From NCBI GenBank assembly GCA_965227315.1, contig OZ245737.1, positions 859,517-923,516 on the forward strand: a stretch of DNA of 64,000 bases, in the 5' to 3' direction. This stretch comes from Cytophagales bacterium (GTDB lineage: Bacteria > Bacteroidota > Bacteroidia > Cytophagales > CCMP332). Under the pieces are notes generated by a model, which saw only the letters and a list, made by a program, of their open reading frames with translations, was not told where the DNA came from and made no database searches. Of the stretch, positions 4,795-53,686 are shown one piece after another; within the stretch, counting starts at the first letter, position 1, and each line of letters starts with the position of its first letter. The position numbers and the translations under genes are program-made.

Positions 4795-4909
4795 TTGTGG
4801 CTTGGGCTACAAAGAAAATACTGAGTAACTTTTGCACCTTGATTTAAATGATAAAAGGGCTCTTACCCCCATAAGTGGAAAGTCTACCTTTTTCTGACCA
4901 GTTACTAAA

Positions 4910-5158
4910 TTGACCGTACCTAGCAAAACCGAGTTCGATGCCAAAAAAAGGGAACAGAAGATCGATATCCTTTTAAAGATGGGCTCATATCTGTACTGGA
5001 AGCGGGAAGAAGGTTATAATCTCTATCTCTACTCCCTCGGGGATTTCTATGTACAGCTCTGGCTTTCGCGCACAACGGCGAAAATCGTGAAGCTGGAGTC
5101 ATTTTCCTCTGACGATGCCCTGCTCCCATTTGTGGATGACATCGAACTACCCGAATAA
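4910..5158 (+). CDS. Hypothetical small protein (82 aa)
   Basis: It is the only ORF in this gap and does not overlap neighbours. It has a non-ATG (TTG) start and no recognisable motif. Confidence 0.35.
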   Translation: MTVPSKTEFDAKKREQKIDILLKMGSYLYWKREEGYNLYLYSLGDFYVQLWLSRTTAKIVKLESFSSDDALLPFVDDIELPE

Positions 5159-5159
5159 A

Positions 5160-6467: not shown

Positions 6468-6502
6468 AAAAAGTCCAAGGTCTCTCAGTAAACAAATCCG
6501 AT

Positions 6503-6510
6503 TACTTTTG
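6503..6510 (+). promoter_or_regulatory. Candidate Bacteroidota sigma-A -7 element (TAnnTTTG)
   Basis: TACTTTTG is a perfect match to TAnnTTTG and lies 21 nt upstream of the ATG at 6531. No -33 element was checked. Confidence 0.25.
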
Positions 6511-6530
6511 CGGCTCGATTTTGATGTAGG

Positions 6531-7301: not shown

Positions 7302-8260
7302 AGACCGACTCTTTCACCGATCTGGTATTCGCTCTTGTTATTGGAATCCAGGTTGATCAATTCGGCCAGATAACCCGCAAGGAAGAGTTGGACCCCGACT
7401 ATGATCCCTACCAAAGCGATATAGAACAGGGGTTGATCGACAATATCCCTGACCTTCAGGCCTTGTGAAATACCATAGATCTTTTGAAAAATGATGGTGA
7501 GACTGATGATAAAACCCACCAGGAAAGAAAGCGAGCCCAAAGTACCAAAGAAATGCATTGGTCTCCTCTTGAACTTGGTGATAAACGAAATGGAAAGCAG
7601 ATCCAAAAATCCATAAACAAATCGCTCCAAGCCAAACTTGGTTGAGCCAAATTTCCTGGCACGATGTTCAACCACCTTTTCCCCGATCTTTTTGAATCCC
7701 TTCCACTTTGCCAGAAAGGGAATATAACGATGCATCTCACCATATACATCTATTGACTGCACCACCTCTAACCTGTAAGCCTTGAGTCCGCAGTTAAAAT
7801 CATGGAGTTTTATTCCGGAAAATCCTCTGGCCACCTTATTGAAAAGCTTTGTGGGAATGGTTTTCGTGATCGGGTCAAATCGCTTTTTCTTCCAGCCGGA
7901 TACCATGTCATACCCATCCTTTCGGATCATCCTGTATAATTCAGGGATCTCGTCAGGGCTGTCCTGCATATCGGCATCCATGGTGATCACCACGTTCCCG
8001 GTACAGACTTTGAAACCTTCGTTCAAAGCAGCCGACTTGCCATAATTTCTTCTGAATTTTATTCCCTTGATATTGGGATCCTGTTCCGCCTGCTGCCGAA
8101 TCACTTCCCATGACCTGTCCTCACTCCCGTCATCAACGAGAATGATCTCGTAGGCCAGGCCATTTTCGGAAAGCACACGCTTATTCCAGGCGATCAGTTC
8201 AGGAAGGCTTTCCTCCTCGTTATACAAGGGAACAACAATGGAGATATCAGGATTCGGCAT
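7298..8260 (-). CDS. Family 2 glycosyltransferase (polyprenol-phosphate sugar transferase-like, with C-terminal TM helices)
   Basis: SIVVPLYNEEESL, ILVDDGSEDRS and the DADMQD (DxD) motif, plus two C-terminal TM helices. Confidence 0.85.
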   Translation of the reverse strand: MPNPDISIVVPLYNEEESLPELIAWNKRVLSENGLAYEIILVDDGSEDRSWEVIRQQAEQDPNIKGIKFRRNYGKSAALNEGFKVCTGNVVITMDADMQDSPDEIPELYRMIRKDGYDMVSGWKKKRFDPITKTIPTKLFNKVARGFSGIKLHDFNCGLKAYRLEVVQSIDVYGEMHRYIPFLAKWKGFKKIGEKVVEHRARKFGSTKFGLERFVYGFLDLLSISFITKFKRRPMHFFGTLGSLSFLVGFIISLTIIFQKIYGISQGLKVRDIVDQPLFYIALVGIIVGVQLFLAGYLAELINLDSNNKSEYQIGERVGL

Positions 8261-8803
8261 CTATATGTCTCTCTCCTGCTCTTTTCTTTTCACAATAGCA
8301 CCGACGATCAGAGCGACGATCCCGTAGAAGACCCAAGCGATGAAATACCCCTTGATCATTCCCAGTGCCGTAAATCGGTCATAGGTATCCTGCTCTGCCT
8401 GGTCCAATGCCTCATCTATAGCATCATCCGGGGTATCAAATCTTTCCATAAGAGCTTCCGTATTGTCCAATGAAGCCTGCACTATGACATCCACCGCACC
8501 AGGATCGATCACAACGAAGAGCAAAAGATTGAAAAGTGTGCCGATCAGGCCAGCGACGGCCAGTATCCCAAAAGAGTAGATGAAAGCATTCTTGAAGGAA
8601 ATATAACCCCCCAGTGCTTTCCGGTTCCGGACCGAAAAAACAAATACCATGGCAAAGGAAAAAACGAGGATAAAGGCCAGGTATTTAAGACTGGCAAAGG
8701 CAGTCACATCAACGATGTATGACAACAATCCTATGATCACGCTCAAGAGACCAAAAATGGCTCCATCCTTGATGATCTGTTTCATTGAATCATTTGACTC
8801 CAT
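8261..8803 (-). CDS. DUF4199-like small polytopic membrane protein
   Basis: It has 4-5 TM helices with an acidic helical insert (DNTEALMERFDTPDDAIDEALDQAEQD). The start is taken at MESNDS (8803) rather than 8839 to reduce overlap with the upstream gene. Its stop abuts the GT2 start. Confidence 0.5.
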   Translation of the reverse strand: MESNDSMKQIIKDGAIFGLLSVIIGLLSYIVDVTAFASLKYLAFILVFSFAMVFVFSVRNRKALGGYISFKNAFIYSFGILAVAGLIGTLFNLLLFVVIDPGAVDVIVQASLDNTEALMERFDTPDDAIDEALDQAEQDTYDRFTALGMIKGYFIAWVFYGIVALIVGAIVKRKEQERDI

Positions 8804-9341
8804 GGCTATTTTTTTTACGAAAGTAATTGGGCAGAGCAAAAAATAAAAGCATGAACAAAATGGTAAAAGGAAACCCGATGAGAACTTTTTTGATCAGATC
8901 ATCCATTAGGATCACTCCTACCCCTGTTTTCTCAAGGTTTTGCCTGGCCAATGCAAACTCTTCTTCCCCCGAGAACCGAATGTAGACCTCCTTGTTGCTT
9001 TCCAAAAATTCCATGGCCTCAAGCAAATAGGAATCCACCGTTCCCGGAAATGCCTTGAGGAAAAGCGAAAAGATCATCAGATAAAGAAGGGGGCCTGTAA
9101 TGGCAATACCCAATCCAAAAACGCCCATTTCCAGGATCTTTCGTTTCCCCAGAGTAGAATAATGAAAATGAGCAATGCTACCGCCGACCACAAATGGAAC
9201 AAAGAGCGCCTGAAGAGGACTGTATTGCCGCCCCAGCGGATTGAACCCAAGAAAATAGGTGCCAAAGAGAATAACAGCGTAAACAAGGGCCCCCACCAGG
9301 GAGTATGCCAAAATGGTCTTAAACAGGTTTTGGCTTTTCAA
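8790..9341 (-). CDS. DUF4199-like small polytopic membrane protein (second copy)
   Basis: It has the same architecture as the neighbouring gene: N-terminal TM helices, a helical soluble insert and a terminal TM helix. Confidence 0.45.
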   Translation of the reverse strand: MKSQNLFKTILAYSLVGALVYAVILFGTYFLGFNPLGRQYSPLQALFVPFVVGGSIAHFHYSTLGKRKILEMGVFGLGIAITGPLLYLMIFSLFLKAFPGTVDSYLLEAMEFLESNKEVYIRFSGEEEFALARQNLEKTGVGVILMDDLIKKVLIGFPFTILFMLLFFALPNYFRKKNSHGVK

Positions 9342-9346
9342 TGGCT

Positions 9347-10597
9347 TTAGAGATTGGATTTTAGGCCATTGATCGTTCCCAACAGTCTGGCATGAAATTC
9401 TGATCCTGCAAACGGATCATCATACTCATGCCCCCTGGTACCGGAATACTCCCAGGTGAATCGATTTTGAAATATGGTCAGCTCTGCGTTCTCATCCTTC
9501 TCGATGATTGGCATATCCAACCCAAGGATCCTGGCAGGGCCAAGAGAAAAGAGCTCAGCTATTTTGACCTTTTTCAGGTCCTGCGATGTGCTGGTCCAAA
9601 AAGAAGGGAAACATGTTTCCAGTGTCCTTCCACCAAAGGAAGCAAGATCAAATTCCAGATCCCGGGATTCCGAATCCTGTGGAGAATGAGCCGAACTGAT
9701 CGCATCGATGGTTCCGTCTTCGGCGAATCTTGAAAGTCCCCTGATCGTCTTTTTCGATCTTAAGGGAGGGTCTAGCTTGTACCTAGTGGCATATCCTTCA
9801 AGATGACTCTCATCCAGACAGAAAAGATATGCGGGAACATCACAGCTCACCTTTAAGCCCTCGGATTTGGCCCTCTTAATAAGCCTCAGGCCCTCAAGAG
9901 TACTCAGCTTGGGAAAATGCACCCTGCCTCCATTCATTCTGAGCAGGTCAAGATCTCTTCTGATATGGACGGTCTCTGCTTCCTCTGAGAACCCCTTCAT
10001 GCCAAGTTTGGTACTGATCAACCCCTCGTTGACCTGAGCTCCACGTGATAGTTCCGGGTCCTTGGTCTGGCTAAAGATCGTAGCTTCACGATCATTCAAA
10101 TATCTCAATCCATTTGCGAACATTTCAGGATCTGCCTTTTGCCTTCCATCAATGAAGCCAACTGCTCCAGCTGTTAAGAGATCCTGAAGATCATTTAGCC
10201 GCTCATCCTGAAAATCCTGAGATAAGGCAGCCAGAGGGTGGACATGTATGCCAAAAGATCTCCCCTTCTCGATCAGGCTCAATATCAGATCTCTTGATTG
10301 AATGATCGGATCGGTAAACGGAAGTGTAACCAATCGCGTAAACCCACCTTTTGAAGCCAGCTCAAAGGTTTTGGCGATGCTTTCCTTGAACTCATAGCCG
10401 GGATCATTGATCCTGACATTCATGTCGATCCAACCCGGGCTGAGGCAAAGGCCCTTTTCGGCAATGACCTTGCCTTTCTTTTTAAGATCTTTTGAAATAT
10501 CCCTGATCTTACCCTTGTCTATAAAAACATCAACTCTCTTTTGAAAAAACCTGGACCTGGGGTCCAGGATGAGAGCGTCCTTTAGGGTGTAAGGCAT
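9347..10597 (-). CDS. Dihydroorotase-like amidohydrolase, probably non-catalytic (PyrC-prime-like)
   Basis: 416 aa with a class I DHOase-like layout. The metal-binding D-x-H-x-H is replaced by GWIDMNVRINDPG, and the TDHAPH region reads SSAHSPQ. Confidence 0.7.
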   Translation of the reverse strand: MPYTLKDALILDPRSRFFQKRVDVFIDKGKIRDISKDLKKKGKVIAEKGLCLSPGWIDMNVRINDPGYEFKESIAKTFELASKGGFTRLVTLPFTDPIIQSRDLILSLIEKGRSFGIHVHPLAALSQDFQDERLNDLQDLLTAGAVGFIDGRQKADPEMFANGLRYLNDREATIFSQTKDPELSRGAQVNEGLISTKLGMKGFSEEAETVHIRRDLDLLRMNGGRVHFPKLSTLEGLRLIKRAKSEGLKVSCDVPAYLFCLDESHLEGYATRYKLDPPLRSKKTIRGLSRFAEDGTIDAISSAHSPQDSESRDLEFDLASFGGRTLETCFPSFWTSTSQDLKKVKIAELFSLGPARILGLDMPIIEKDENAELTIFQNRFTWEYSGTRGHEYDDPFAGSEFHARLLGTINGLKSNL

Positions 10598-12613
10598 TTA
10601 GAGAAATCTAATGATCAGTGTTTCAGCGAGTAAAAAAACCAAGGCAAAAATAAGGCAATATTTCCAAAGGGGTCTACCCACAAAATCCATGTTATAGGAT
10701 TTGGAAATTTGCACACCAGACCCGCCTTCAAAGAATCTTACATTATCCCTGCTTTCGGAAAAAGCCTTAAGTTTCGAATAATCGATCACGGATATCTCGG
10801 ATTCCCTGGATGCCGTGTTGATCGCAATGGAACCACACACGGTGTCATTAAGGACCAGGTTAAAAAAGCCAGGCTTCAAGGGCCTTCCTTCCGTTGAGAG
10901 CAAAGCATACTTCCCGACTATCCTTTGATTGGGAATGATCTCCATACCCTCTCCTGACAGGCGGAATAGCTGGTCATCCGGCAATACCGATATCTTCACT
11001 TTCAAGAATTCCCTGTTGTATCTCTGAAACAGGGCCTGATCCTCTGATGAGGTGGAAAAAGCAGCCAAACGGAAAAATACCGGAACAAAAATCGAATGTT
11101 TGACAAAATTTCCATACTCGGGCAGCAAGGGCGAACCCATCATATAGAGCCTCCCCTGACCAACATTTGCATAGGCCAATAAGGGCTTTTCGTTGCGCAA
11201 ATTCAGAATTGATCTGTCCCATCCTTCCAGATCCCTTGTCAACTGAATATAGGGAAGGTCCATGCGCCTATCGAACTCGTCAAATACCCCTTCAAAAAAA
11301 GGATCTCCTTCTGATAAAGGGGCTATTTTGATATCCTGATCGGATTTGACCCTTGAACTGGATAATCCGTTTGACCTCATAAAGGATCGAAGGGCGAGTG
11401 AAGAAGAATCGCCTTCGGGCAAGAGCATCACATGTCCGCCCGATTCCAGGAACTCCTGTAAAAATCCATTTGGAAGATCCTGATAGTCAAGCCCGTCATG
11501 AACAATCAAAAGATCGGTTCTTTCCAAAACAGATAGATCCGGATTTCCGTAAGGCATAAAAGTCAGATCAAAGGCGGGTTCAGAATGGAAGAGGGCTGCC
11601 AGGTAGGGATTTGGCCTCACTCCTATTTCACTGACCCTGATATCACTCAATGGGGTCAGGATAAATCTAAAATGATTATCGCTTGAAATCCCTTCATCAT
11701 TGATCTCAATTGTGCAATTGAAATCCTTGGGGTTTTCCAGGCTTAGCTCAAAGACAAACTCCTCCTGTAGTCGATCTTCAAAGATGATGGTCTTGGAAGC
11801 TCTTTGGTTGCCATCAACGATCAGTCTAAGGCTTGCTTCCAGTCCCGAAAAGTCGCCCGATGCCTTCAGTATTCCTCTCAATTCGAAGCTATTTCCGACC
11901 TCAATAAAAGGTTTGGACAACCATACAGTATCTACATAGAAATTGGCCTTGGTCGTTGTGCTCAGGGGATAAAGGAAGTACTCGTTGAGGCTATCCATTG
12001 CCCATTCCTCAAGATCCCCAAAAGTATTTTCCTGAAAGTCGGAAAACATCCAGACCTCCTTTCTTCGGGATGTTGGCGGAAAAGAGTTGGCTTTCCGAAC
12101 GACCTCGTTTCCCTTCCTGAAATGAAGGGAATAATCCAGATCAGAAAACCGATCCAACAGGGAAGATCTTTCATAGGGGTATTCATCCGCGGAGGAAAAG
12201 GAATTGTCAAAAAAGAAGTAATCCCCGGAAAAATTGGTCTTGTCAATGATCTCACCCATGATGTTTCTTCCGGTGCTCAACCCATCGGCCCCTTCTCCGG
12301 CAACCTCCATGGAAAAAGAATTGTCCAGATAAAATACCCGATCCCAATTGCCGGGATCAGCTTTGTGCACAGCAGGTGGCAGAACAGGCTGAGAAAAAGC
12401 CAGCACCACCATAGAAATGGAAAGGATCCTTGCGAGAAGAACGAGCAAGTGTTTAAGATTCCTCGATTTTGATGAGGTTGTTTTAATTTCCTCAAGCCAA
12501 CGGACATTGGTAAAGGATATCTTTTTTAATCTTTGAAAATTAAAAAGATGGATCAGGATTGGAATCGAGATCAGGCCCAAGGCCCAAAGAATACCTGGAT
12601 TAAGGAATTGCAT
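10598..12613 (-). CDS. BatA-N (N-terminal double-transmembrane domain) membrane protein
   Basis: The N-terminus MQFLNPGILWALGLISIPILIHLFNFQRLKKISF matches the aerotolerance-regulator N-terminal signature. A C-terminal TM helix is present. Confidence 0.7.
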   Translation of the reverse strand: MQFLNPGILWALGLISIPILIHLFNFQRLKKISFTNVRWLEEIKTTSSKSRNLKHLLVLLARILSISMVVLAFSQPVLPPAVHKADPGNWDRVFYLDNSFSMEVAGEGADGLSTGRNIMGEIIDKTNFSGDYFFFDNSFSSADEYPYERSSLLDRFSDLDYSLHFRKGNEVVRKANSFPPTSRRKEVWMFSDFQENTFGDLEEWAMDSLNEYFLYPLSTTTKANFYVDTVWLSKPFIEVGNSFELRGILKASGDFSGLEASLRLIVDGNQRASKTIIFEDRLQEEFVFELSLENPKDFNCTIEINDEGISSDNHFRFILTPLSDIRVSEIGVRPNPYLAALFHSEPAFDLTFMPYGNPDLSVLERTDLLIVHDGLDYQDLPNGFLQEFLESGGHVMLLPEGDSSSLALRSFMRSNGLSSSRVKSDQDIKIAPLSEGDPFFEGVFDEFDRRMDLPYIQLTRDLEGWDRSILNLRNEKPLLAYANVGQGRLYMMGSPLLPEYGNFVKHSIFVPVFFRLAAFSTSSEDQALFQRYNREFLKVKISVLPDDQLFRLSGEGMEIIPNQRIVGKYALLSTEGRPLKPGFFNLVLNDTVCGSIAINTASRESEISVIDYSKLKAFSESRDNVRFFEGGSGVQISKSYNMDFVGRPLWKYCLIFALVFLLAETLIIRFL

Positions 12614-12710
12614 TTATTCTTCTAGCGGGTGTGAAAATAATTTGAATCAGGAATTAAAACGAATACCGGGCCAACTTGATATCCCCTGAAATAAATTGAA
12701 CAGATAATTT

Positions 12711-18352: not shown

Positions 18353-19349
18353 TCTGTCCCTTGCTGGCAGGGTTTATCAGGAACAGGATATAGGCGATCA
18401 ATCCAAGGAACAGGGTAATGATCAATGTGCCTCCATTGTCTACAATTGCAAAATCCTTTCCATCCTGGCCAGGGAGTCCAAAGGCAATGAACAACTGCCA
18501 AACCACATAGTGAAAAGGCCCCATACCATTTGGCACTGGTAAAACCCAACCGAGGCCACCGATAAAAAACACCACAAAGGCAAAATAGAAACTCAGGCTC
18601 TCTGTTTCCTTCAGAGAGAGAAAGAAGGCGTAGGTCAGCAGTACCAGGAAGGCCCAAAGAAAAAACGTGTAGACGGTAAACCGCAGAGGGTGCTTGAGTG
18701 TTCGAACGCTTTTCGCCGACTTCCACAACTCGTCGGCAAAATCATAAACCTTCTGTCCGACTTTTCCACCTTTGGATTTGATCCTGGTATTCTTGAGTAT
18801 CCAAAAACCGATCAAGCCCAAGAACACAAAGACCCCGATCCCAAACCAAAGTCTGGTCGATCCAACCATGCCGGATAGTCTTGAGAACACATTGTATATG
18901 AGGTCTTTCAATAGGGAAAATTCCAGGAAAAAGATCACCAGGATACCCATACCCAAAACAAACAGGTCCGCTACCCTTTCTATGATAACCGTACCAAGAG
19001 ATTTGGCCACTGGCACATCCTCACTTCGGTATAGTGTTGAACAGCGGGCGATCTCACCCAGTCTTGGTGTAAGGCTATTTACACCATAGCATATGAGTAC
19101 TGAGTTCAGTGTATTGAGAAAAGAGACTTTGTTCCCGGCTTCCTCCAGCAATAATTGCCACCTAAGCGTGCGAAATACATGACTGAAAAAGAGGAATAAA
19201 CCGGCCAACAGCACATAACCCCAACGGACATCCTTAAGGTCATCTATAATAACCCCAATCGGTCTATCCCTGAGTGTAATGATGAGAAAGAAGGCGGCGA
19301 TGCCGGCTCCCACCAAAAATTTTAGTACCTCCCTGAGCCAGTTTTTCAT
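18333..19349 (-). CDS. UPF0104 / lysylphosphatidylglycerol-synthase-TM-like (flippase-like) membrane protein
   Basis: About 8 TM helices and an RTLRWQLLL motif after TM2. Confidence 0.55.
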   Translation of the reverse strand: MKNWLREVLKFLVGAGIAAFFLIITLRDRPIGVIIDDLKDVRWGYVLLAGLFLFFSHVFRTLRWQLLLEEAGNKVSFLNTLNSVLICYGVNSLTPRLGEIARCSTLYRSEDVPVAKSLGTVIIERVADLFVLGMGILVIFFLEFSLLKDLIYNVFSRLSGMVGSTRLWFGIGVFVFLGLIGFWILKNTRIKSKGGKVGQKVYDFADELWKSAKSVRTLKHPLRFTVYTFFLWAFLVLLTYAFFLSLKETESLSFYFAFVVFFIGGLGWVLPVPNGMGPFHYVVWQLFIAFGLPGQDGKDFAIVDNGGTLIITLFLGLIAYILFLINPASKGQIKNSRD

Positions 19350-19403
19350 GAAAGCCGCAAAGAAAAGATAATTAGGAAACTAATTCCTCTTTGAGATGTA
19401 TGA

Positions 19404-22247
19404 TTAGTTTGAAGAATCGCGAACTTTTAGCACCATTCCGGAATAGAGAACATTGCTGTCAAGTCCGTTCATTTGGCGAAGCCTTGAAACACTTAGGTTA
19501 TATTTTTTGGCGATATCAAACATAGTATCACCCTCTTTGACCACATATTTCCCCGGGCTGACCTCACCGTATGCGGTCTCCTGAGGCTCAACGATCAGCC
19601 TCCATCCGATCTGGATCCTGTTGGAACTGAGACCATTGATCTCCTTGAGCTGGTCAACACTCATCCCATGCATTTTCGCGATACTGTAAAGCGTGTTCAG
19701 GGGTTCAACCACATAGTATTCCTGCCCCTCCTTTAAGGGTGGTAATTGAAGTTGCTCCGTTTTCAACATAGAACCGGAACTGGCCCGCTGAGCCGATGCC
19801 ATGGTCACCGGTGCTATCAACCCGTTATCTCCGGTTCTCCTGACCCTCAATGGCGTCAGTGCATCGATCTGATCTTTGTCCAGATTGTTCACCCTCATCA
19901 ATTCTTCCTTGGGCATGTTAAATAATTCCGCAACGTCAGCAAGGCTGGATTGGGATTCCACTACGTAGGTCATCATCAGGGTTTCGTATCTATGCCCTCC
20001 GGTCACCATGAATTCAGCCCTTCGGTTGATCCTTCTTCCAACTGCGCTTTCATTGCTTCCAAGAGGTTGTAACTCACCCATTGCATTGATCACAAGAGAG
20101 CTTGGCTTTGCTCCTCTGTTCTCAAGATACTTCTCAATCTCTTCACCTCTTTTCTGGGAAAGATCCTTGTTGTAATCTTCTCCCCCAATGGCATCCGCAT
20201 AAGCTGATATTTCCACTTTTGAATCGGGATTGTCCTTTAAATAGGTCGCCAATTCATCCAGGGTCATTTCTGCCTCTCTCCGGATCTTATAATCGTTAAA
20301 GTCAAAATAGATATTCTCGAATACCGTTGCTCCCATCGGGGCTTCGGCTTTTGTCCAGATCAGCTTGGTTTCACCACTGATGTATTTTACATCAGAGATC
20401 AGGGAAAGAAAATCCTCATCTACCACAATGTTGTAATTCCTATCTGAATCAAGATTCTCAAACCTAACGGCACCCAAATGATCGGTCGTAGTCCTTTTCA
20501 GGATATTTCCTTCATCATCAACCAGAAGCACAGGTACATCAACAGCAGGCTCACCGGATTCTGCGACCATAATGGTCGATAGAATGGCAAACTTTCCGAT
20601 CTCTTGCAGTTGGTCTCTCAGGATCACAGCGAGAACCTTCCCATGTCTTGTTTCGGAAAGGTCAATATCCCCGTTAGCGCCGGAATAGAAAACAGTGGAA
20701 TTCAGATCATCGCGTTCCTCCTCAAGCATGACCTGATAACCTTTATCGGAGGTTAGGTCATCAAACTCCACCTGTCCATACTGGTCTGTTTGAGCTCTTT
20801 TTATCAGGTTACCCACCTCATCCGTCAGAAGAACAGGTACATCATGTGCAGGATCTCCGGATTCCGAATAGGTCAGGGTGGCTAAAACCTTAAAAACATC
20901 CTTAAAATTGACACTATCACTATTGACCTTGGCAAGAATGATCTCCTTGGATTCAATATTGAAGTAATAGATATCATCACTACCTGCTCCACCTTCCCTA
21001 TTGCTGGCCATAAGGCCCTTTTTATCTCCCAAATGGAAGTAAAAATCATCCCTGTTCGAATTAAAAGGAAGTCCCAGGTTCCGTGGCTCTCCGCCATCTT
21101 CGAAGAAATACTCAAAGATGTCCAACCCGCCGAAACCCTTTTGTCCGTTACTCACAAAGAACAAAAGCTTCTCCTTGGCATAATACTGAGGAGCCATGTC
21201 AAGAAACGGGGTATTCACCTTCGGGCCAAGATTCCTTGCAGGATTCCAATCTTCCCCAGGGCCTGACTTCGTGCTATACCAGATATCATTGTTCCCAAGA
21301 CCATCGGGTCGATCACTCACAAAGAAGATCGTATCGCCTGTTGGCGTGAGGGTCGGTTGCTTGGTTTCAAAGCCTGGTGTGTTGATCTCATCCGGTAACC
21401 TTTGAGGTTGGATCCACTTCCCGTCCTTTAGTTCGGAAACATAAATTGCGCATGGGTATTCATCTTCAAGGCAACTCGTATAGTATATCTTCTGGCCCCC
21501 ATTTGTAAATTCTGCTGCACCATCGTTCCTAACAGTATTGATATCCGAGAAGTTATCCCGGTCGTCATATTGCTCCCATTTATTGGGACCCGTCTTCTTG
21601 AATCGAAAGATGTCGGTGTATTGACCTCCGAGTCTTACATCGATCTCATTTCCCTTGGTTCCCTCCCTTGAAGAGGCAAGAATGATGGACGAGTCGTTCT
21701 CAAAAAAGGCCGGGGCATATTCCGAAAATTCCGTGTTTACAGGGCTTGGAAGCAGCTCAAACTTATAGTCTCGTAAAGGTTTTTTAAGCTCGTTCATGGC
21801 AAGTTCACAGCCCGCCTGCTCCAGTTTTGCCTCAGTTGTATAGATGGTATCCTCCTCCACTTCCGGCTGATAAGCGGAAAGGAATTTGTCAAATTCTCCC
21901 ACCGCTCGTTGGTATCTTCCATTGCTCTTCAACATCATGGCATACCAGAACCTGACCAGCGGATATTCTTTGTCCGCTCCCAATTTGCCAGCCTGCAGAT
22001 ACTGCTTTTCGGCCTTCAGATAGTCAAAATACAACCTGTAGCATTCGGCAAGCCTGTAGTTCAGATAGTAGTTATTGGGATCATCCTTTAGGGCCCGATT
22101 GTAATAATCTGATGCCAGGTAATACTCTCCGTTTTCGAAGTACTTATCTGCAACTTCAATTTCCGCATCCGACTTTTTTTGAGCCAAAGCCCCGGAGAAG
22201 GGCATGGATACAATGATAAAGAACAGCAGCGCGATTATATTTTTCAT
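19404..22247 (-). CDS. PorE-like OmpA-family protein: TPR, PD40 beta-propeller, 2x CarboxypepD_reg-like, OmpA_C, 3x LysM
   Basis: Signal peptide ..SMPFSGALAQ. TPR region (YYNRALKDDPNNYYLNYRLAECY). PD40-type repeats (TGDTIFFVSDRPDGLGNNDIWYS). Two VPVLL(T/V)D(E/D)xGN units. OmpA motifs (NIYFDFNDY...NRRAEF). Three LysM units (YVVKEGDTMFDIAKKYNLSVSRLRQMNGL and two more). Confidence 0.85.
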   Translation of the reverse strand: MKNIIALLFFIIVSMPFSGALAQKKSDAEIEVADKYFENGEYYLASDYYNRALKDDPNNYYLNYRLAECYRLYFDYLKAEKQYLQAGKLGADKEYPLVRFWYAMMLKSNGRYQRAVGEFDKFLSAYQPEVEEDTIYTTEAKLEQAGCELAMNELKKPLRDYKFELLPSPVNTEFSEYAPAFFENDSSIILASSREGTKGNEIDVRLGGQYTDIFRFKKTGPNKWEQYDDRDNFSDINTVRNDGAAEFTNGGQKIYYTSCLEDEYPCAIYVSELKDGKWIQPQRLPDEINTPGFETKQPTLTPTGDTIFFVSDRPDGLGNNDIWYSTKSGPGEDWNPARNLGPKVNTPFLDMAPQYYAKEKLLFFVSNGQKGFGGLDIFEYFFEDGGEPRNLGLPFNSNRDDFYFHLGDKKGLMASNREGGAGSDDIYYFNIESKEIILAKVNSDSVNFKDVFKVLATLTYSESGDPAHDVPVLLTDEVGNLIKRAQTDQYGQVEFDDLTSDKGYQVMLEEERDDLNSTVFYSGANGDIDLSETRHGKVLAVILRDQLQEIGKFAILSTIMVAESGEPAVDVPVLLVDDEGNILKRTTTDHLGAVRFENLDSDRNYNIVVDEDFLSLISDVKYISGETKLIWTKAEAPMGATVFENIYFDFNDYKIRREAEMTLDELATYLKDNPDSKVEISAYADAIGGEDYNKDLSQKRGEEIEKYLENRGAKPSSLVINAMGELQPLGSNESAVGRRINRRAEFMVTGGHRYETLMMTYVVESQSSLADVAELFNMPKEELMRVNNLDKDQIDALTPLRVRRTGDNGLIAPVTMASAQRASSGSMLKTEQLQLPPLKEGQEYYVVEPLNTLYSIAKMHGMSVDQLKEINGLSSNRIQIGWRLIVEPQETAYGEVSPGKYVVKEGDTMFDIAKKYNLSVSRLRQMNGLDSNVLYSGMVLKVRDSSN

Positions 22248-22313
22248 AATGCTGGTTGAAGAGATCAGCCTATTTTTTCTAAAGAAATAAAAAAAAATCC
22301 AGCCGAGAAAGTT

Positions 22314-24653
22314 CTATTCCTCGTCCTCAGGAGCCTTTACTATGTAAAATTCCACCCTACGACTATATGCAGAGCCCTTTTCTTCAGGGTCGGTTACACC
22401 GGGAATACTCACGGTACTGAGGTCAATTGTTACTTTGGTTTCCTCTCCCATCGGGTATAGTACAAGGGAACTTTCATCTACCTGGCGAAGTCTTAGGTAT
22501 TCCAAAACCGAATTAGCCCGGGCAGCGGATAGCTTGCGGTTGAACTCGGCATTTCCGACCGTGTCCGTATAGGCTGAAATATCCACCTGGATAGTCGAAT
22601 TGTCCTTATAATACCTACCTAGGTCATCCAGAGTCTGCTTTGCATATTGATTCAGATCCTTGGAGCCAAAATCAAAATAAATGTTCTCGAACTTCACGTT
22701 CTCGATCACCGATTCATAGCGCTTGAGGTTCAATTCATTGAATACCACGGAATTATCCGGATTATAATTTGGATCTTCCCGATCCAGGATCACTTTGTAA
22801 TTCCTGTCCGTATCAAGATTTTCGAACCTCATAAAGCCCTTTTGGTTTGTTCTTCCTTTCTTGATGACATTTCCATCTTCATCTAAAAGCAAAACAGGAA
22901 CTCCACCCGCCGGTTCTCCTCCCTCTTCATAGGAGATACTTCCCAAGAGGGCAAAACCTTTAAAATCACCCAATGAATAGTCGGAACCCTTGTTATCCAT
23001 TTTTAAGGTCGCCTGTGGCTGATCCTTGAAATACACCAGACTCAGGTTATCGACGACCTCAATATCATTGATGAAATACCTCATGTCCGCTTGTAGTGCC
23101 GGATCATCAGAATCGATGACAATCCGATAACTTCTATCCGTGGGGATCTCTTCGAAGCGAACGAGTCCATCCGAATCCGTGGTAGTGGTTTTCAGGATCT
23201 TGCCGTTGTCATCGACCAACATCACCTTGACATTAGAGGCCGGATTGTCTCCTGATCCCGAATAATGGATCCTGGTCAGAGCGGTATACTGTTTGAAATC
23301 GTCGAGATACTCGTTCGCAACCATTTTGATGAATTTCTTCCGGCTGGCATATTCAAAAGCATAGATATCGGTCTTTCCCTTACCACCCTCACGGTCGGAT
23401 GAAAAGTAACCCTTTCGTTTTCCCAGAACCAGATAAAAGTCATTTCTACTTGAGTTGAATGGCATTCCAAGATCCTTCACAAAATCCAGGTTATCCCCTG
23501 TGGCCATATAGAGATCAACACCGCCAAATCCCTCGCGTCCGTCAGAGGCAAAAAAGAACGTATGCTCCTTTGGATAATAAGATGGAGAAATATCGGCAAA
23601 CGGAGTGTTGATCCTCGGGCCCATGTTTTTAGCGGCTCCCCATTCCTCGGCCTTGGTTTTGGTAGAGTACCAAATATCCTGCATCCCCTCACCACCTGGT
23701 CTCTCCGAAACGAAAAACAGGGTATCGCCCTTGGGAGTGATAAAGGGGTGTTTATTCTCGGTTTTTGGTGGGTTGATGTTCTCGTTCAGTTTTTCGGTGT
23801 ACCAGGATTTACCCTTTTTCTTGGCCACGAAAATGGCGCAGTTCCCGTCTTCCTCCTGACAGGCTGTGTAATAGAATTTCTTTCCTCCTTTAACAAAGGA
23901 TCCCGGACCATCATTTTTAAAGGTATTCGATACCGATAGGAAGGCTGAACCATTGCTGATTGACCATCTGTTGGTCCTTTTGTTCCATTTCACATAGAAA
24001 TTATCGGAATAGAAGATCTCAGCTTCCTTGTCTTTATTGTCCTGTTTTACCCCTTTTCGATCGGAAGTCAATACAAACATCGAATCGGATACGAGTCCCG
24101 GCGCATACTCATCCGCACCGGTATTAATTGGTCTGTCAAGATTCTCAAAACGAATATCCCTTTCCTTTTTCTGAAGTTCCTTTAATGCGATCCTGCAACC
24201 TTCGGCTTCAAGCACCGCCTTCTCCTTCAGGATCTGGTCCTGCTCCGAGCTTCCATGAAAATTTTCCACAAAGTGATCAAGGATCCCCTTGGCCTCTTCG
24301 AATTGGCCGTTCATCTTGGTGGTCACCCCATACCAGAAATACGCATGAGGAAATTCATCAGCAGCCCCTTTTGCTACGACCTCATAATATTTCTCGGCCT
24401 TGGGGTAGTCGAAAAGCTCATAGTACAATTCCGCCAATTGATAGTTGGCATAGTAATTTTTGGGGTTTTCGTCTATTTCCTTTTCATAGTATTCAAGCGC
24501 ACTGTAACCCTCACCCATTTTCAGGTATTTGTCTGCGATCTTTACATTCTGGGTTAGATATTCCTTTTTAACCTGGTTATCCTGGCCGACCGAAGAGGTC
24601 ACGACGAATAGAACTGCTACCATGGGCAGCAGAAGTCTAAGGTAAACTTTCAT
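22314..24653 (-). CDS. PorE-like OmpA-family protein: TPR, PD40 beta-propeller, 2x CarboxypepD_reg-like, OmpA_C
   Basis: A paralog of the downstream gene: TPR (YYEKEIDENPKNYYANYQLAELY), PD40 repeats (KGDTLFFVSERPGGEGMQDIWYS), VPVLLLDEDGNVIKK, and OmpA (NIYFDFGSKDL...SRRVEFYIV). Confidence 0.85.
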   Translation of the reverse strand: MKVYLRLLLPMVAVLFVVTSSVGQDNQVKKEYLTQNVKIADKYLKMGEGYSALEYYEKEIDENPKNYYANYQLAELYYELFDYPKAEKYYEVVAKGAADEFPHAYFWYGVTTKMNGQFEEAKGILDHFVENFHGSSEQDQILKEKAVLEAEGCRIALKELQKKERDIRFENLDRPINTGADEYAPGLVSDSMFVLTSDRKGVKQDNKDKEAEIFYSDNFYVKWNKRTNRWSISNGSAFLSVSNTFKNDGPGSFVKGGKKFYYTACQEEDGNCAIFVAKKKGKSWYTEKLNENINPPKTENKHPFITPKGDTLFFVSERPGGEGMQDIWYSTKTKAEEWGAAKNMGPRINTPFADISPSYYPKEHTFFFASDGREGFGGVDLYMATGDNLDFVKDLGMPFNSSRNDFYLVLGKRKGYFSSDREGGKGKTDIYAFEYASRKKFIKMVANEYLDDFKQYTALTRIHYSGSGDNPASNVKVMLVDDNGKILKTTTTDSDGLVRFEEIPTDRSYRIVIDSDDPALQADMRYFINDIEVVDNLSLVYFKDQPQATLKMDNKGSDYSLGDFKGFALLGSISYEEGGEPAGGVPVLLLDEDGNVIKKGRTNQKGFMRFENLDTDRNYKVILDREDPNYNPDNSVVFNELNLKRYESVIENVKFENIYFDFGSKDLNQYAKQTLDDLGRYYKDNSTIQVDISAYTDTVGNAEFNRKLSAARANSVLEYLRLRQVDESSLVLYPMGEETKVTIDLSTVSIPGVTDPEEKGSAYSRRVEFYIVKAPEDEE

Positions 24654-24671
24654 ATGTCGAAATTAGGAAAT

Positions 24672-25715
24672 TTAGATTTTCGGAGTAGAGAATCTTCTCC
24701 GTTTCTTTTCCTTGGCCTGACGTAGGGTCAATGTGATCTCATATGCGCCCAATCCTCCGGTAACACGCGAAAGAGAACTGGCATTAAAATCATAGCTGAA
24801 TCCCAGGGTATAGTATTGATTGTCGAGCCCGATCGAAAGGATAGCGGCATCTCCTACCCTATACCAGCCTCCAAGGACGAGGTCGGTCTTTGCCAATAGA
24901 CCAAGGGGCGTATCGAACATCCTATAGGTATAATACAGACCTGCATTGACCTGCATAAGGCCTGCAGTATACTGGACAAGGATATTGGGAGAAATATCGG
25001 ATTTTGAATTCATATGGATCTCAAATCCACCATGGTATTTAAAAAGCAAGGGAACCCTAGATGTTTGCCCATCGATGAAGGACTCATTGGGCATATTAAC
25101 ATTGCTGATCACCAATCCATTATAGGCACTCATACCGGTAAACAGATATGATTGTTTGGGATTATAATAAAAGAGTACTCCCAGGTTAAACACCGGGTAT
25201 ATCACATTATCCTTTAATGTGCCTTCTCCTGAATTCAGGTTTGGATTAAACCCGGAATGAGGGTCAAATTGGCTACCAAATTCAAGGCTGGCAAAGTCAA
25301 AGTTCTTCTGCACAACGCCGATCTGTCCCCCGAAAGAGAACACTCTCAGCTTCTTCCTGTCCAGGGGAAGGTTATAGGCAAATGAGCCCATCACCATGTT
25401 GGTTGTAAAGTTTCCATCACCGGCCCTGTCCTTAAAAAAGGTCAAACCAGCTCCGCCATAATGCTTCTTGCGGAACCCTCTTTGCCTTAACGGAGCGATC
25501 AGCGATACCTGAGTGGTGATATAGGGCTGAACCGCGGTCGCCCATTGGGATCGAAAGGCCGAATTCAAGGCAAGCGTCTCGTAATTGCCAACAAGCGCGG
25601 GGTTGAGAAACAATGATGAGGCATAGTATTGCGAAAAAGTAGCTTGCTGCGCCCTCGCACCCAGGGAGAAGATCCCCAACAGCAGAAAAAGCAATATCGT
25701 TTTTCTCAATCTCAT
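24672..25715 (-). CDS. PorP/SprF-family type IX secretion system membrane protein
   Basis: Signal peptide, then AQQATFSQYYASSLFLNPALVGN (the PorP/SprF N-terminal signature), followed by a beta-barrel-like remainder. The ATG at 25715-25713 directly abuts the TAG of the adhesin gene at 25718-25716. Confidence 0.85.
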   Translation of the reverse strand: MRLRKTILLFLLLGIFSLGARAQQATFSQYYASSLFLNPALVGNYETLALNSAFRSQWATAVQPYITTQVSLIAPLRQRGFRKKHYGGAGLTFFKDRAGDGNFTTNMVMGSFAYNLPLDRKKLRVFSFGGQIGVVQKNFDFASLEFGSQFDPHSGFNPNLNSGEGTLKDNVIYPVFNLGVLFYYNPKQSYLFTGMSAYNGLVISNVNMPNESFIDGQTSRVPLLFKYHGGFEIHMNSKSDISPNILVQYTAGLMQVNAGLYYTYRMFDTPLGLLAKTDLVLGGWYRVGDAAILSIGLDNQYYTLGFSYDFNASSLSRVTGGLGAYEITLTLRQAKEKKRRRFSTPKI

Positions 25716-28700
25716 CTATCTGATCAGGTTCACAGTTCCGGCCTTTTCAAACGACTCTCCGGATCGGAATTTGCCTTTAATATAGTAAGTATAAACGCCT
25801 TGTGGCACATTTCCTCCACCAAGGCTGGTGCTTGTTCCATCCCAGCCCACAAATTTGGCTTCTCCGATATCGGTTGTGCTATAGACCTTGGTTCCCCATC
25901 TGTTGTAGATGGTCAATTCGAATTCCGATGCCTGAACATTGTATCCGTAAACCTTGAACGTGCGGTTTTCAGCGTTTGAACTGTTTGGTGAGAAGGCATT
26001 CGGCAAATAGACCTGTTCGTTGTTTGTTACCGTAAACGGCAGGAAGAAGGTATCGGTACAGCCATTGGCGTTCTCTGCAAGGACACCTGTCATGAATTCA
26101 CCGGCTGAAGCATAAACATGAACAGGATCTACTCCAACACCTGTAGCATCACCGAAATCCCAGAAATATTCAAATGCTGTTTTATCCTCCAGTACAAACT
26201 GTACCGGTTGATCGATCTCACCAACAGGCACCGAAGTCACATACCTCGCTGAGGGAGCATCCAGGAAGCTGATCACCGTATCATCTTCAACCACCAGGCA
26301 TGGATTCGACACTTCCACATTGAAATTCACGGCACCCTGATCCAGGTCAGATGGCACATAGAATGCGGTATCCTGATCAGGATTGATCAGATTGCCCAAA
26401 CCATCGGTGGTCCAAAGTATGCTAATGCTATCACCAGTAAAGAGTCCTGTGAGGAGGACGGTGTCGTTGTTACAATAGGTGTTGGTGTCTACAAGGATGA
26501 CCACCCCGGGATTTTGCAATTCATACACTTCAAAAACTTCAGATGTGTCTTTGCAGTCATCTCCGTTGATCAGAATCAATTGCCATAGCCCTGGTTCATC
26601 TACCGTCACAGTACTGCTTGGGAATGAATCTTGTGTAAACAGATTTCTCCATAGATAGGAAATAACATTGTTATCAGCACTGCTCAGAACCGTGGAATCT
26701 CCCGGACAAATAATACTATCTCCCAAGATCGTGGCATTTGGTATTCCAAACACGGTCATAAAGGCAGAATTCGAAAGTTCCGAGCATCCCCCTAGAGTGG
26801 TGACCCGGACGCTGTAATCGCCGGTGCTGTCTACTACATAAACCGAATCAGTCGCGCCCTGGATAGAATCTCCATCTCTGAACCATTGATAGGTATAGCT
26901 GGTATCCTGAGGAGTAGCGATGAGGATCACGGGCTCATTCGCGCAGAAACTCTGAGGATTGGTTGGCAACATGATCACCTCTGCCAATGTATCCACCTGA
27001 ATAAAGAAGGTATCGAACCTGGTACAGGTTTCAAGTGTGGCTTCAAGGACCACATAAGAGTTTTGCTTGGCCAAGCCCCAGTTCACCAATAACTGACTAC
27101 CGGTCCATGTAATATTGTTGGGGCCATTTGGCTGCTGATCGTTGATAAATGGAGTGATCAGAGTATTCGGTTTCACATTGCTGAGCGTATAGCTTCTGGT
27201 GCTGCCATCGGCACAGGCAGCAACCGGCCAGTCGTCGATCACGATATTTCCGGGATCTTCAGAAATATGAATTGCCAGAAGCGAATCGGTACGACAACCC
27301 GCAGCATTTGTTTGCTGAAGCTCGACGGTGAATGATCCGTTTTGCTGAATAACAAGGACCAGGGTATCATTTGTTACCCCGCCAAGCTGAGATACCACGG
27401 TAACACCCTGTTGTACATCCCAGAAATAAGTATGAGTCGGATCAGGATTGGTGCTCCAGAAAGAGATGGTATCAAATTCCAATTCACAGATGGTATCCCC
27501 GGGAATTGAGCTGGCAATACCTGTAACAGGAGCCGGTGTTAAGGTAACATCCTTGTAAACCGAATCGTAGCAGGGTCCGTTGGTCACGCTGAATGCAACC
27601 CAACCTGTAGGCCCGGTTCCCCATTGAACCGTGACAGTACCCTGACCTGAACTGATGATGGTTCCATTCGGAGAAACATATGAATTATAATTCACTGTCG
27701 ACCATGGACTGAGGCTGTCAACATTGTAAACAACCACCGAACCTTCGCAGGTATCGGTACTACCGCTGAACTCCGCGAATACATTCCTGAATGTCTTAAT
27801 AACTATGGTATCCGTGGATTCACAATTCGCAGAATTGGGGTCTATTCTGGATACCACCAGCGTATCCTGACCGAAATTGCTGAATTGTATGGTATCACGG
27901 AATCCAAGGAAGCCCACACCTGAGAAATTATGCGGCTGGTTCGCAGAACCAGCAGTCAGGTTCCAATCATAACTATCGCCAACTCCAAGGGAGGCTTCAA
28001 AAATTCCCGTACTATCCTGACATATCTCTACCGGTCCTGTTATGGTTACGCCGGGTTTGTTAAAGATCCTGATCGTGGTATCCGTATCAACAGGGCAAAG
28101 CACCACACCGGAAGGATCAGGGCTGAATGTCAGGACAGAAGCCACAGGACTTATCCAGTCAATTGTTACAGTAGCCGTACCCGTGGCAGGAGGCTGGATC
28201 GAGCCATTCGCATTGCTCAAACTCCATGAGCCCGGCACATCAGCCGTATATACCTCAGCTTCCGGCGCACAGACGGTATCCAAACCTGTGATATTATATT
28301 GTTGAAGGGTATCTACGATTACCGTCACCTGGGTGGAGGTATCTGTACATCCGTTGCTGTTGATGATCATCAAAGAGTAATCTCCAGCAGAATCGGTCAC
28401 CATATTGGAGGATCCGAGTGTAGGTCCGAATACAGTATCCACACCATTGTAAACCCATGTATAGATGCTGGTCGGGAATACACTGTCAGCAGCCAGGGTT
28501 ACCGAATTGCCAGGATAAGCACAGAATCGTGCTGTTCCGGCTATGGTATCGACTCCAACCCATGGAAGCGGGTTCAACTCCAGATACACCGTATCAGAAA
28601 CGGCATCGCAACTTCCATCATTGATACTCACATAGTATCCATCTTCCACGAAGATGTCTATTTCATCAAAAGGAGGACTTGGATTAGGAATAGCTCCCTG

Positions 28701-29363
28701 TGCTATACCGAACCAGGAGTATGTAATTATACCACTGGCGGTGGCAGATAAGGTAAATGTATCACCATCGCAAATCGAAACCGTTCCGAAAGTATCCAGG
28801 GTTACAATTGGCAATGCCCTAACTGTGATCGCCAATGAATCAGATATTCCCAAACATCCAAGCGGAGTTTCATAGGTCGCAAAATACCTTCCGGAGTCCT
28901 GTGCAAAGATCTGGAATTGACCATTGGTCAGTAAGGTGTCATAAGGCGTCACCACACCGAGGGAATCTCTGAACCAACGGATACTTGCGGTATCGTAGTT
29001 GGAGAAATTATTCAATTGGATCAACGGCGGAGTTGGGCTTCCGAAGCAAATATCCGTTGAGCCGGATATCACGGATATACCTTCCTGTGCGACGATCTGA
29101 ACTTCAACATTCACAGTATCGGACAGTGTGAAGCAACCGTTAAGTCCAACAACAACGCAATGGAAATCTCCGTCGATCACAAATCCACCATTGCCGAATA
29201 CGATCTTACTCGAATCAATACCACGGAATACGGTATCAGGCTGTACACCAGCTGTATTGATCCAATAATAGGTTTGCCCTGCCACTTGTGGTACCTCCAA
29301 ACTATCACGTTCAATATCGCAAATGGCAATGTCCGTATTATCTACCAGGGTAGCATCCGGCAC
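25716..29363 (-). CDS. C-terminal segment of the giant adhesin: Ig-like Cys-framed modules, a PKD-like domain and a T9SS type B (gliding-motility-associated) C-terminal sorting domain. It has no signal peptide of its own.
   Basis: The C-terminus VYLPNAFSPNSSNAENRTFKV...LTIYNRWGTKVY...WDGT...PQGVYTYYIKG...GTVNLIR matches the type B CTD. A PKD-like YFWDFGDATG..PVHVY lies upstream of it. The called start is a GTG and the frame stays open upstream into the 7010-aa ORF. Confidence 0.85.
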   Translation of the reverse strand: MPDATLVDNTDIAICDIERDSLEVPQVAGQTYYWINTAGVQPDTVFRGIDSSKIVFGNGGFVIDGDFHCVVVGLNGCFTLSDTVNVEVQIVAQEGISVISGSTDICFGSPTPPLIQLNNFSNYDTASIRWFRDSLGVVTPYDTLLTNGQFQIFAQDSGRYFATYETPLGCLGISDSLAITVRALPIVTLDTFGTVSICDGDTFTLSATASGIITYSWFGIAQGAIPNPSPPFDEIDIFVEDGYYVSINDGSCDAVSDTVYLELNPLPWVGVDTIAGTARFCAYPGNSVTLAADSVFPTSIYTWVYNGVDTVFGPTLGSSNMVTDSAGDYSLMIINSNGCTDTSTQVTVIVDTLQQYNITGLDTVCAPEAEVYTADVPGSWSLSNANGSIQPPATGTATVTIDWISPVASVLTFSPDPSGVVLCPVDTDTTIRIFNKPGVTITGPVEICQDSTGIFEASLGVGDSYDWNLTAGSANQPHNFSGVGFLGFRDTIQFSNFGQDTLVVSRIDPNSANCESTDTIVIKTFRNVFAEFSGSTDTCEGSVVVYNVDSLSPWSTVNYNSYVSPNGTIISSGQGTVTVQWGTGPTGWVAFSVTNGPCYDSVYKDVTLTPAPVTGIASSIPGDTICELEFDTISFWSTNPDPTHTYFWDVQQGVTVVSQLGGVTNDTLVLVIQQNGSFTVELQQTNAAGCRTDSLLAIHISEDPGNIVIDDWPVAACADGSTRSYTLSNVKPNTLITPFINDQQPNGPNNITWTGSQLLVNWGLAKQNSYVVLEATLETCTRFDTFFIQVDTLAEVIMLPTNPQSFCANEPVILIATPQDTSYTYQWFRDGDSIQGATDSVYVVDSTGDYSVRVTTLGGCSELSNSAFMTVFGIPNATILGDSIICPGDSTVLSSADNNVISYLWRNLFTQDSFPSSTVTVDEPGLWQLILINGDDCKDTSEVFEVYELQNPGVVILVDTNTYCNNDTVLLTGLFTGDSISILWTTDGLGNLINPDQDTAFYVPSDLDQGAVNFNVEVSNPCLVVEDDTVISFLDAPSARYVTSVPVGEIDQPVQFVLEDKTAFEYFWDFGDATGVGVDPVHVYASAGEFMTGVLAENANGCTDTFFLPFTVTNNEQVYLPNAFSPNSSNAENRTFKVYGYNVQASEFELTIYNRWGTKVYSTTDIGEAKFVGWDGTSTSLGGGNVPQGVYTYYIKGKFRSGESFEKAGTVNLIR

Positions 29364-29374
29364 AGGTAGAACAG

Positions 29375-29435
29375 TTACACTGATGGTTGCCGTATCCGTA
29401 AAACACCCATTGTTGCAAGTCCTACCACCTGGTAA
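29375..29435 (-). other. Frameshift junction joining the 7010-aa and 1215-aa ORFs (apparent 1-nt deletion, most plausibly at about 29408-29413)
   Basis: The upstream frame reads ..DYQVVGLATMGVLRIRQPSV*. The downstream frame, read 5' of its called start, gives ..NNGCFTDTATISVTVLPVPDATLV. That supplies the conserved second Cys and the V.V..P end of the module begun in the upstream ORF. The span 25716-50407 is 24692 nt, which is 2 mod 3. Confidence 0.75.
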
Positions 29436-53586: not shown

Positions 53587-53686
53587 TATCCGACGACTAA
53601 AAATAAGCAAAAATCGATGCAAGGATACCCCTTGTACGGGAAATAAACCAAAAAGTTTAGGCTTAAATCCTGGTCTTACGATTATT

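Follow-up and report, generated by a model that had tools for sequence, protein, structure and literature searches.

Why should a single giant adhesin of a type IX secretion system (T9SS) be accompanied by two PorE-like proteins, only one of which carries LysM domains? The question is raised by a locus in a stretch of 64,000 nucleotides (hereafter, the window) from contig OZ245737.1 of a Cytophagales bacterium, in which a cargo whose C-terminal domain (CTD) is probably of type B is followed on the minus strand by a PorP-like outer-membrane protein and by two tandem PorE-like proteins, which we call paralogs A and B. [quoted passage not shown] We consider it fairly probable (at about 0.6) that the locus is a type B cargo module in which a PorP-like barrel would be combined with PorE-like wall anchors, with the LysM-bearing form being ancestral and A having been derived from it by duplication and loss of the tail. 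This result extends the existing anchoring model and leaves the model itself unchanged. In fact, both the operon type and the wall-anchoring model are already published, and the PorE-like form that combines OmpA and LysM domains is common, though undiscussed in the literature that we found. What remains unusual here is a clade-specific, selectively maintained pair, in which one anchor lacks LysM domains and the other has them.

Paralog A occupies positions 22314-24653 (779 amino acids) and paralog B positions 19404-22247 (947 amino acids), just as a first-pass annotation of the window had proposed. The two proteins are paralogs, aligning in BLASTP at 38% identity over 774 amino acids (E=3e-172), with identities of 41% in the tetratricopeptide repeat (TPR) region, 44% in the beta-propeller, 29% and 37-42% in two beta-sandwiches, and 41% in the C-terminal OmpA domain (OmpA_C). 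The annotation had assigned these domains and a signal peptide to both proteins, and on this architecture the Pfam searches and an AlphaFold2 model of B (built from a 76-sequence alignment, with a mean predicted local distance difference test score of 85.3) agree. In the model, a helical TPR region (residues 25-154) is followed by the propeller (176-441), the two sandwiches (452-530 and 552-632), and an OmpA-like alpha/beta domain (640-749); in A, the TPR and propeller cover residues 34-448, the sandwiches 462-640, and OmpA_C 659-772. The OmpA profile (PF00691, gathering cut-off 27.2 bits) yields 71.3 bits for B and 51.7 bits for A, and the PD40 profile 45 and 48 bits, respectively. The TPR region is matched by TPR_14 above its cut-off in B and by TPR_19 at 29 bits in A, and there are further matches to bMG3 in A (52 bits) and to both bMG3 and SdrD_B in B, again above their cut-offs. 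The proposed identity of the sandwiches as CarboxypepD_reg-like domains (CRDs) held as far as the fold is concerned, which is present in both proteins, but the Pfam family itself is reached only by A (37.2 bits), whereas B, at 30.1 bits, lies just under the cut-off of 32.3.

Paralog B comprises a core (residues 1-750, window 19998-22247), which contains the signal peptide, TPR, propeller, CRD1, CRD2, and OmpA_C, and a tail (residues 751-947 plus the stop codon, 19404-19997) with three LysM domains, as the annotation had recognised. The LysM profile (PF01476) scores 114.2 bits there against a cut-off of 20.9, and LysM3_LYK4_5 (PF23473) is also matched at residues 758-800, whereas Pfam finds no LysM domain in A. 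Each of the three units has a beta-alpha-alpha-beta fold in the model, and they lie at residues 758-803 (19839-19976), 843-886 (19590-19721), and 900-942 (19422-19550), spanning 19422-19976 in the window as compared with the earlier estimate of about 19407-19980. [quoted passage not shown] However, periplasmic LysM proteins such as MltD, DipM, and NlpD, like the Pal/OmpA anchors, have one kind of wall-binding module each and are mostly wall hydrolases or outer-membrane lipoproteins, whereas B joins both kinds on a secretion-system accessory scaffold that has no catalytic domain. The signal peptides of both paralogs are of the signal peptidase I (SPase I) type, that of B ending in GALA before QKK and that of A in SSVG before QDN, and across 76 family members the signal peptide end is nearly always A-Q. 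A search for a lipobox cysteine at the N-termini of A and B found none, and both are predicted to be soluble periplasmic proteins and not lipoproteins.

Are A and B then forms of PorE? Both match the NCBIfam profile T9SS_PorE (NF052230, cut-off 600 bits) over the TPR and propeller region (profile positions about 12-431 of 648), with 262.4 bits for B and 207.7 bits for A, and both share with PorE the order TPR, beta-propeller, CarboxypepD_reg-like fold, and OmpA_C, as well as the linkage to a protein of the PorP family and to a cargo with a type B CTD (predicted here; PG1035 in P. gingivalis). Both OmpA_C domains can be aligned with the crystal structure of PorE (6TOP), with PorE HADRKGPDAYN corresponding to YADAIGGEDYN in B and YTDTVGNAEFN in A and the D-x8-N spacing kept in both. 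In P. gingivalis PorE, Asp576 and Asn584, which lie in this stretch, are the peptidoglycan-binding residues needed for function (PMC12773672). The PorE-like nature that had been claimed for the pair is thus well founded on the profile matches, the domain order, and the retained Asp/Asn pair. Nevertheless, there are clear differences. PorE (PG1058/PGN_1296) is a lipoprotein (PMC9143113), whereas A and B carry SPase I signal peptides; it has one CRD, whereas A and B have two CRD-like sandwiches; it has no LysM domain, whereas B has three; and it is a single-copy core component needed for general gingipain secretion and encoded away from porP, whereas A and B are operon-specific. The possibility that A or B is the true PorE of this organism was rejected, given the scores far under the cut-off, the missing lipobox, and the separate shorter genes of the PorE/CHU_0125 type found in related genomes. 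By these comparisons, A and B are PorE-like in architecture and ancestry and are not PorE orthologs.

The best-scoring NCBIfam family for both proteins is the CHU_0125 OmpA-like family (NF053607, cut-off 620 bits), with 291.3 bits for B and 243.8 bits for A, although the match stops near position 484 of the 639-position profile. CHU_0125 is a putative Pal-like outer membrane integrity protein of Cytophaga hutchinsonii, a species of the same bacterial order, and likewise has TPR, propeller, and OmpA_C, and a match to an "outer membrane integrity" family favours an alternative in which A and B would be general envelope tethers, that is, Tol-Pal-like stabilisers between outer membrane and peptidoglycan (a CpoB-TolB-Pal fusion of the kind proposed for PorE, or a CHU_0125-like protein), their adjacency to the adhesin being incidental or regulatory. 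PorE itself has been proposed as a compact Tol-Pal analogue (MBE 2025, PMC12204202), and some LysM-bearing homologs have no PorP neighbour (for example, locus L007 in our numbering). We nonetheless find this alternative improbable. The scores are less than half of the CHU_0125 cut-off, CHU_0125-type genes group outside the LysM-bearing clade (99/100 bootstraps in the tree described below), and the literature that we found reports no PorP or cargo link for CHU_0125. Related genomes that carry a LysM-bearing gene also encode separate shorter PorE/CHU_0125-type proteins (L005, L022, L028, L048, L051; about 640-860 amino acids, with neither the CRD pair nor LysM), which form the outgroup in the tree. 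Moreover, the genes remain tightly linked, in one operon, with those for PorP and a type B cargo across 50-98% identity and in most of the wider family. Finally, A and B, not being lipoproteins, could not by themselves bridge the outer membrane and the peptidoglycan. Since neither is lipidated, PorP would be the sole link to the outer membrane, and a cargo-specific role fits better than a Tol-Pal-like one.

The gene order on the minus strand is cargo (25716-50407), PorP, A, and B, with intergenic gaps of 0, 18, and 66 nucleotides. The 347-residue protein encoded at 24672-25715 belongs to the PorP/SprF family (TIGR03519, 200.6 bits, cut-off 90.55; PF11751, 142.7 bits, cut-off 22.3) and is presumed to be the cognate shuttle and anchor of the type B cargo. 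The cargo itself had been described as single, and this needs some qualification. In the window it is split into an N-terminal open reading frame (ORF) of 7010 amino acids (29375-50407; Ig_7, Ig_3, PKD-like, and Laminin_G_3 by Pfam) and a C-terminal ORF of 1215 amino acids (25716-29363; Ig_7 and PKD), with a probable type B CTD at residues 1120-1203 of the latter (window about 25755-26006), where the extreme C-terminus, the expected place for such a domain, scores 54 bits with Pfam CHU_C, above the cut-off of 27, and 24.3 bits with TIGR04131, below the cut-off of 35. In the closest relative, locus L008, which is 90% identical at the nucleotide level over 21.9 kb, the cargo ORF is uninterrupted. 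According to the blastn alignment and the translations, one base is absent from the window relative to L008 at 29405-29420, near 29412, and the window reads GLATMGVLRIRQPSV followed by a stop codon in one frame and NNGCFTDTATISVTV onwards in the other, whereas L008 reads through as GLATNGCFTDTATVSVTV. Because the reading frame of L008 is continuous across the junction, we count the two ORFs as one gene, whose intact product is predicted to have about 8200 amino acids. The frameshift may stem from a mistake in the assembly, or it may mark a gene that has recently become a pseudogene; if real, it would leave the N-terminal part without a CTD and the C-terminal part without a signal peptide.

How much of this arrangement was known before? 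The first-pass annotation had put forward the duplication of a PorE-like component next to a single cargo as undescribed for the T9SS. For the porE-like genes of F. johnsoniae, the primary source is reportedly the 2019 work of Kulkarni et al. Six porP-like genes of this species adjoin porE-like genes (PMC9143113), and a porE-like gene stands beside a type B cargo gene and a porP-like gene in five or six of its operons (PMC9143113, PMC12618676), so that a PorE-like gene in this position is not new in itself. In P. gingivalis, PorE, PorP, and PG1035, a type B cargo, are associated with one another (Gorasia et al. 2022, PMC9143113). Non-mobile type B cargos have been proposed to be wall-anchored via PorP-PorE-like complexes (PMC9143113), and a static complex of Fjoh_3952, Fjoh_3951, and Fjoh_3950 has been proposed in F. 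johnsoniae (PMC12618676). Judged by the published descriptions and not by sequence, the latter genes (cargo, SprF-like, and PorE-like, respectively) resemble the locus in having cargo, porP/sprF-like, and porE-like genes in this order on one strand, and the F. johnsoniae type B operons resemble it in the proposed static anchoring of a cargo-shuttle complex to the wall. They differ in that each has one PorE-like gene and LysM is unmentioned (PMC9143113, PMC12618676), whereas here there is a tandem pair, one member of which has three LysM domains.

By analogy with the PorE-PorP-PG1035 complex of P. gingivalis and with Fjoh_3952/3951/3950 of F. johnsoniae, A and B are probably anchors that act through PorP. 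In this scheme, the T9SS would export the giant Ig/PKD/Laminin_G adhesin, which would stay on its cognate PorP-like barrel at the cell surface. A and B would grip the periplasmic face of PorP, probably with the propeller as the contact, as suggested by analogy with a result on the WD40 region of PorE (PMC12773672), and they would fasten the PorP-cargo complex non-covalently to the peptidoglycan, so that the adhesin would be held static and would not ride the gliding track. Each would bind the peptide stem of the wall through its intact OmpA_C site, and B would in addition hold the glycan strand with its three LysM domains, which would make its attachment multivalent and two-mode, with that of A being single-mode. 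OmpA_C domains are known to bind the meso-diaminopimelic acid stem peptide, and LysM domains bind glycan that contains N-acetylglucosamine. The same gene order is found in all members of the clade that carries the tandem pair (L001/L010, L002/L003/L011, L008, L009, L012, and L013) and persists at protein identities as low as 50-58%, which argues for such a module. A partner with both LysM and OmpA_C could thus provide a testable handle on static anchoring, namely, binding to glycan plus stem peptide, and since A and B occur naturally in one operon, a LysM-bearing and a LysM-less anchor can be compared side by side.

Is the combination of OmpA and LysM on a PorE-like scaffold as novel as had been supposed? 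A protein-cluster search with B as query gave 935 clusters at E <= 1e-20, and the best 120 of these all have both PF00691 and PF01476 (120/120); matches that have a name in the database go by "LysM peptidoglycan-binding domain-containing protein" or the like. In a genome scan with one genome per GTDB species, at least 549 stretches were confirmed as relatives, and a PorE-like protein that has OmpA_C together with one to three LysM domains is encoded at 59 of the best 80 loci. These are mostly from Cytophagales, with Cytophaga aurantiaca DSM 3654, Sporocytophaga, and Catalinimonas among the carriers. Since both B-query rankings, of clusters and of the 80 loci, favour LysM-bearing matches, a control search was made with the LysM-less A, and it gave the same picture. 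Seven A orthologs came first, followed by 36 consecutive LysM-bearing proteins, and LysM was present in 45 of the 55 best non-orthologous matches; the shorter PorE/CHU_0125-type proteins without LysM appeared below about 285 bits. The LysM-bearing PorE-like protein is therefore the common form in Cytophagales, where the usual PorE-like partner has one to three LysM domains plus OmpA_C and is predicted to be soluble in the periplasm rather than a lipoprotein. A PorP gene lies directly upstream in 32 of the 52 cases with enough flanking sequence, and the type B cargos nearby range from 392 to more than 4000 amino acids. The supposed novelty thus remains only with respect to the literature, as searches for LysM together with PorE, the T9SS, or an OmpA-like domain found no paper on the combination, although their coverage was limited and absence elsewhere is not proven by them.

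Several variants of these genes were seen in the same loci. For instance, in L036, L044, L061, L066, and L068 (about 4100-12700; Cytophaga/Cytophagaceae, including C. aurantiaca DSM 3654), a PorP gene is paired with a PorE-like gene with three LysM domains, and ahead of this pair stand two type B CTD genes, each of about 740 amino acids and in divergent orientation, in place of one giant co-oriented cargo. Proteins of about 450 amino acids that match the TPR and propeller (PorE_N) part only, with no sandwich, OmpA_C, or LysM, occur in L062, L063, L069, L070, L072, L074, L075, and L080, and they look like a PorE-like subfamily that is truncated and has no module for binding the wall. The shorter PorE/CHU_0125-type genes, which have TPR, propeller, and OmpA_C and neither the sandwich pair nor LysM, were located at L005:15691-17610, L022:19966-22533, L048:18936-20453, and L051:5999-8479. 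As they lie within 3-8 kb of a LysM-bearing PorE-like gene, both types coexist, often close together.

The tandem arrangement is much rarer than the domain combination. Among the best 80 loci, the order of cargo, PorP, an A-type gene (about 780 amino acids, no LysM), and a B-type gene (about 950 amino acids, three LysM) occurs in one Cytophagales clade only, which consists of the window together with L008, L009, L010 (the same as L001), L011 (the same as L002/L003), L012, and L013, giving six species representatives. Across this clade, ortholog identity ranges from 98% down to 50% for B and from 99% down to 57% for A. The nearest genome match is the Cytophagales metagenome-assembled genome (MAG) PL24a_bin.2, whose B protein is 98% identical, and all close relatives are Cytophagales MAGs. 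The protein search with A as query found no A ortholog outside the clade. Apart from this clade, a tandem is seen at just one of the 80 loci, L050, and the novelty proposed for the tandem duplication is thus partly sustained, in that it is confined to one clade plus this independent case, while the corresponding one-gene operon type was already known. In L050 (7524-15424), from another Cytophagales MAG, two PorP genes are followed by two PorE-like genes with two LysM domains each, and upstream of all these duplicated genes is a single type B cargo with a length of at least 2478 amino acids; the duplication there is an independent one. Within the tandem clade itself, L011 (CAYGPM010000002.1) and the protein P0126 are titled "Hyphobacterium", an alphaproteobacterial genus, and encode A/B orthologs at 50-58% identity; this label on a T9SS locus of the Cytophagales type is probably wrong. 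Among cultured carriers, the strain sequenced as "Hyphobacterium sp. CCMP332" has the tandem, and C. aurantiaca DSM 3654 has the single LysM-bearing form.

With respect to the origin of the pair, one may ask whether B gained its LysM domains or A lost them. A neighbour-joining tree was built from 83 proteins and 515 trimmed columns (TPR, propeller, and OmpA_C), rooted on Bacteroidales PorE-like proteins, with 100 bootstraps. A and B were each monophyletic in 100/100 replicates, and A was nested among LysM-bearing sequences in 96/100; furthermore, the LysM-bearing clade together with A and L019/L020 was split from all other LysM-less proteins of the PorE/CHU_0125 type in 99/100. Since A falls inside the LysM-bearing radiation, parsimony suggests that a LysM-bearing ancestor was duplicated and that A probably then lost its tail. 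The LysM-bearing anchor would then be the ancestral and usual Cytophagales version, and A would have arisen by tandem duplication in this lineage. A recent gain of LysM by B was considered and rejected, as the whole surrounding radiation is LysM-bearing and A lies inside it.

The lost tail and the absence of orthologs beyond one clade could also mean that A is a redundant or decaying duplicate on its way to loss, in which case the tandem would have no special meaning. This is very unlikely. A is full length in 7/7 of the loci examined and retains its signal peptide and peptidoglycan-binding residues. In comparison with L008 (synonymous divergence, dS, 0.36-0.66), its ratio of nonsynonymous to synonymous substitution rates (dN/dS) of 0.011 is the lowest of the three genes compared, with B at 0.016 and PorP at 0.018, and within B the core has 0.014 and the LysM tail 0.024. 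Every domain, each LysM included, is 59-74% identical among orthologs, and the domains of A are 66-74% identical at an overall divergence that reaches down to 57% identity. As A and B have been retained under strong purifying selection, they are not expected to be redundant, and both copies are functional by every sequence criterion.

If both copies are functional, they might act together, as the first-pass annotation had suggested, with A and B assembling on one PorP-cargo unit (for instance, via OmpA_C or TPR) and offering two stem-peptide sites and three glycan sites to carry the load of an adhesin of about 8200 amino acids. The two genes are in fact co-retained in every clade member, adjacent and co-oriented with a gap of 30-70 nucleotides, purifying selection is equally strong on both, and the cargos of the clade are among the largest seen (about 8.2k amino acids in the window and at least 5614 in L002). 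We nevertheless think that such an assembly is rather unlikely. A contact between A and B is purely conjectural, and independent, non-interacting roles would explain the co-retention equally well. Moreover, elsewhere cargos of 2177, at least 2948, and at least 4193 amino acids are served by single LysM-bearing PorE-like proteins, and a large cargo thus needs no second anchor. Given that single anchors also serve cargos of more than 2000-4000 amino acids, load alone is not demonstrated to be the driver of the doubling. The clade might also keep two anchors because each PorP oligomer takes up two of them, or because A and B differ in stoichiometry or timing. The widest form of the idea, in which LysM-bearing PorE-like proteins constitute a Cytophagales-wide class of anchors with a two-mode grip on peptidoglycan and A and B here form an obligate heteromer on a single PorP for the adhesin, seems to us similarly doubtful.

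Returning to the cargo module with PorP-linked anchors and a derived A, several points weigh against it. What is known of the function of this subfamily comes from sequences and predicted structure. A and B are far under the curated cut-offs for PorE (600) and CHU_0125 (620) and do not have the lipoprotein cysteine of PorE, which would leave outer-membrane attachment to hang wholly on the putative interaction with PorP. Searches with hidden Markov models found no PorP directly upstream of 20 of the 52 LysM-bearing homologs with enough flank, and some LysM-bearing members may thus work without PorP. The tree is distance-based, with 515 columns, and A and B are exclusive sisters in only 43/100 replicates. 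Lastly, the cargo gene is frameshifted in the window.

Around the module, scans of positions 19000-25800 found 12 promoter-like sites as compared with 11.0 +/- 3.4 in shuffled sequence and 8 terminator-like sites as compared with 6.4 +/- 2.6, that is, no excess of either. On the minus strand at 22304-22323, in the 66-nucleotide gap between A and B and overlapping the end of A at its stop codon, there is a weak hairpin (7 pairs, 3 G-C) with a T-rich stretch behind it. Attenuation or separate regulation of B by this element was considered and rejected, as such sites are no commoner here than in shuffled sequence. Beyond the 3′ end of B there are housekeeping genes (flippase-like, NFACT, and others), and B is therefore taken to be the last gene of the module. 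On the other side, a 649-residue ORF at 51775-53724 on the minus strand has no Pfam match; it lies upstream of a gene for a protein of 421 amino acids (50503-51768, minus strand), which directly precedes the giant adhesin. In this protein, Ig-like domains are accompanied by a T9SS sorting domain of type A, with Por_Secre_tail scoring 30.9 bits against a cut-off of 27.

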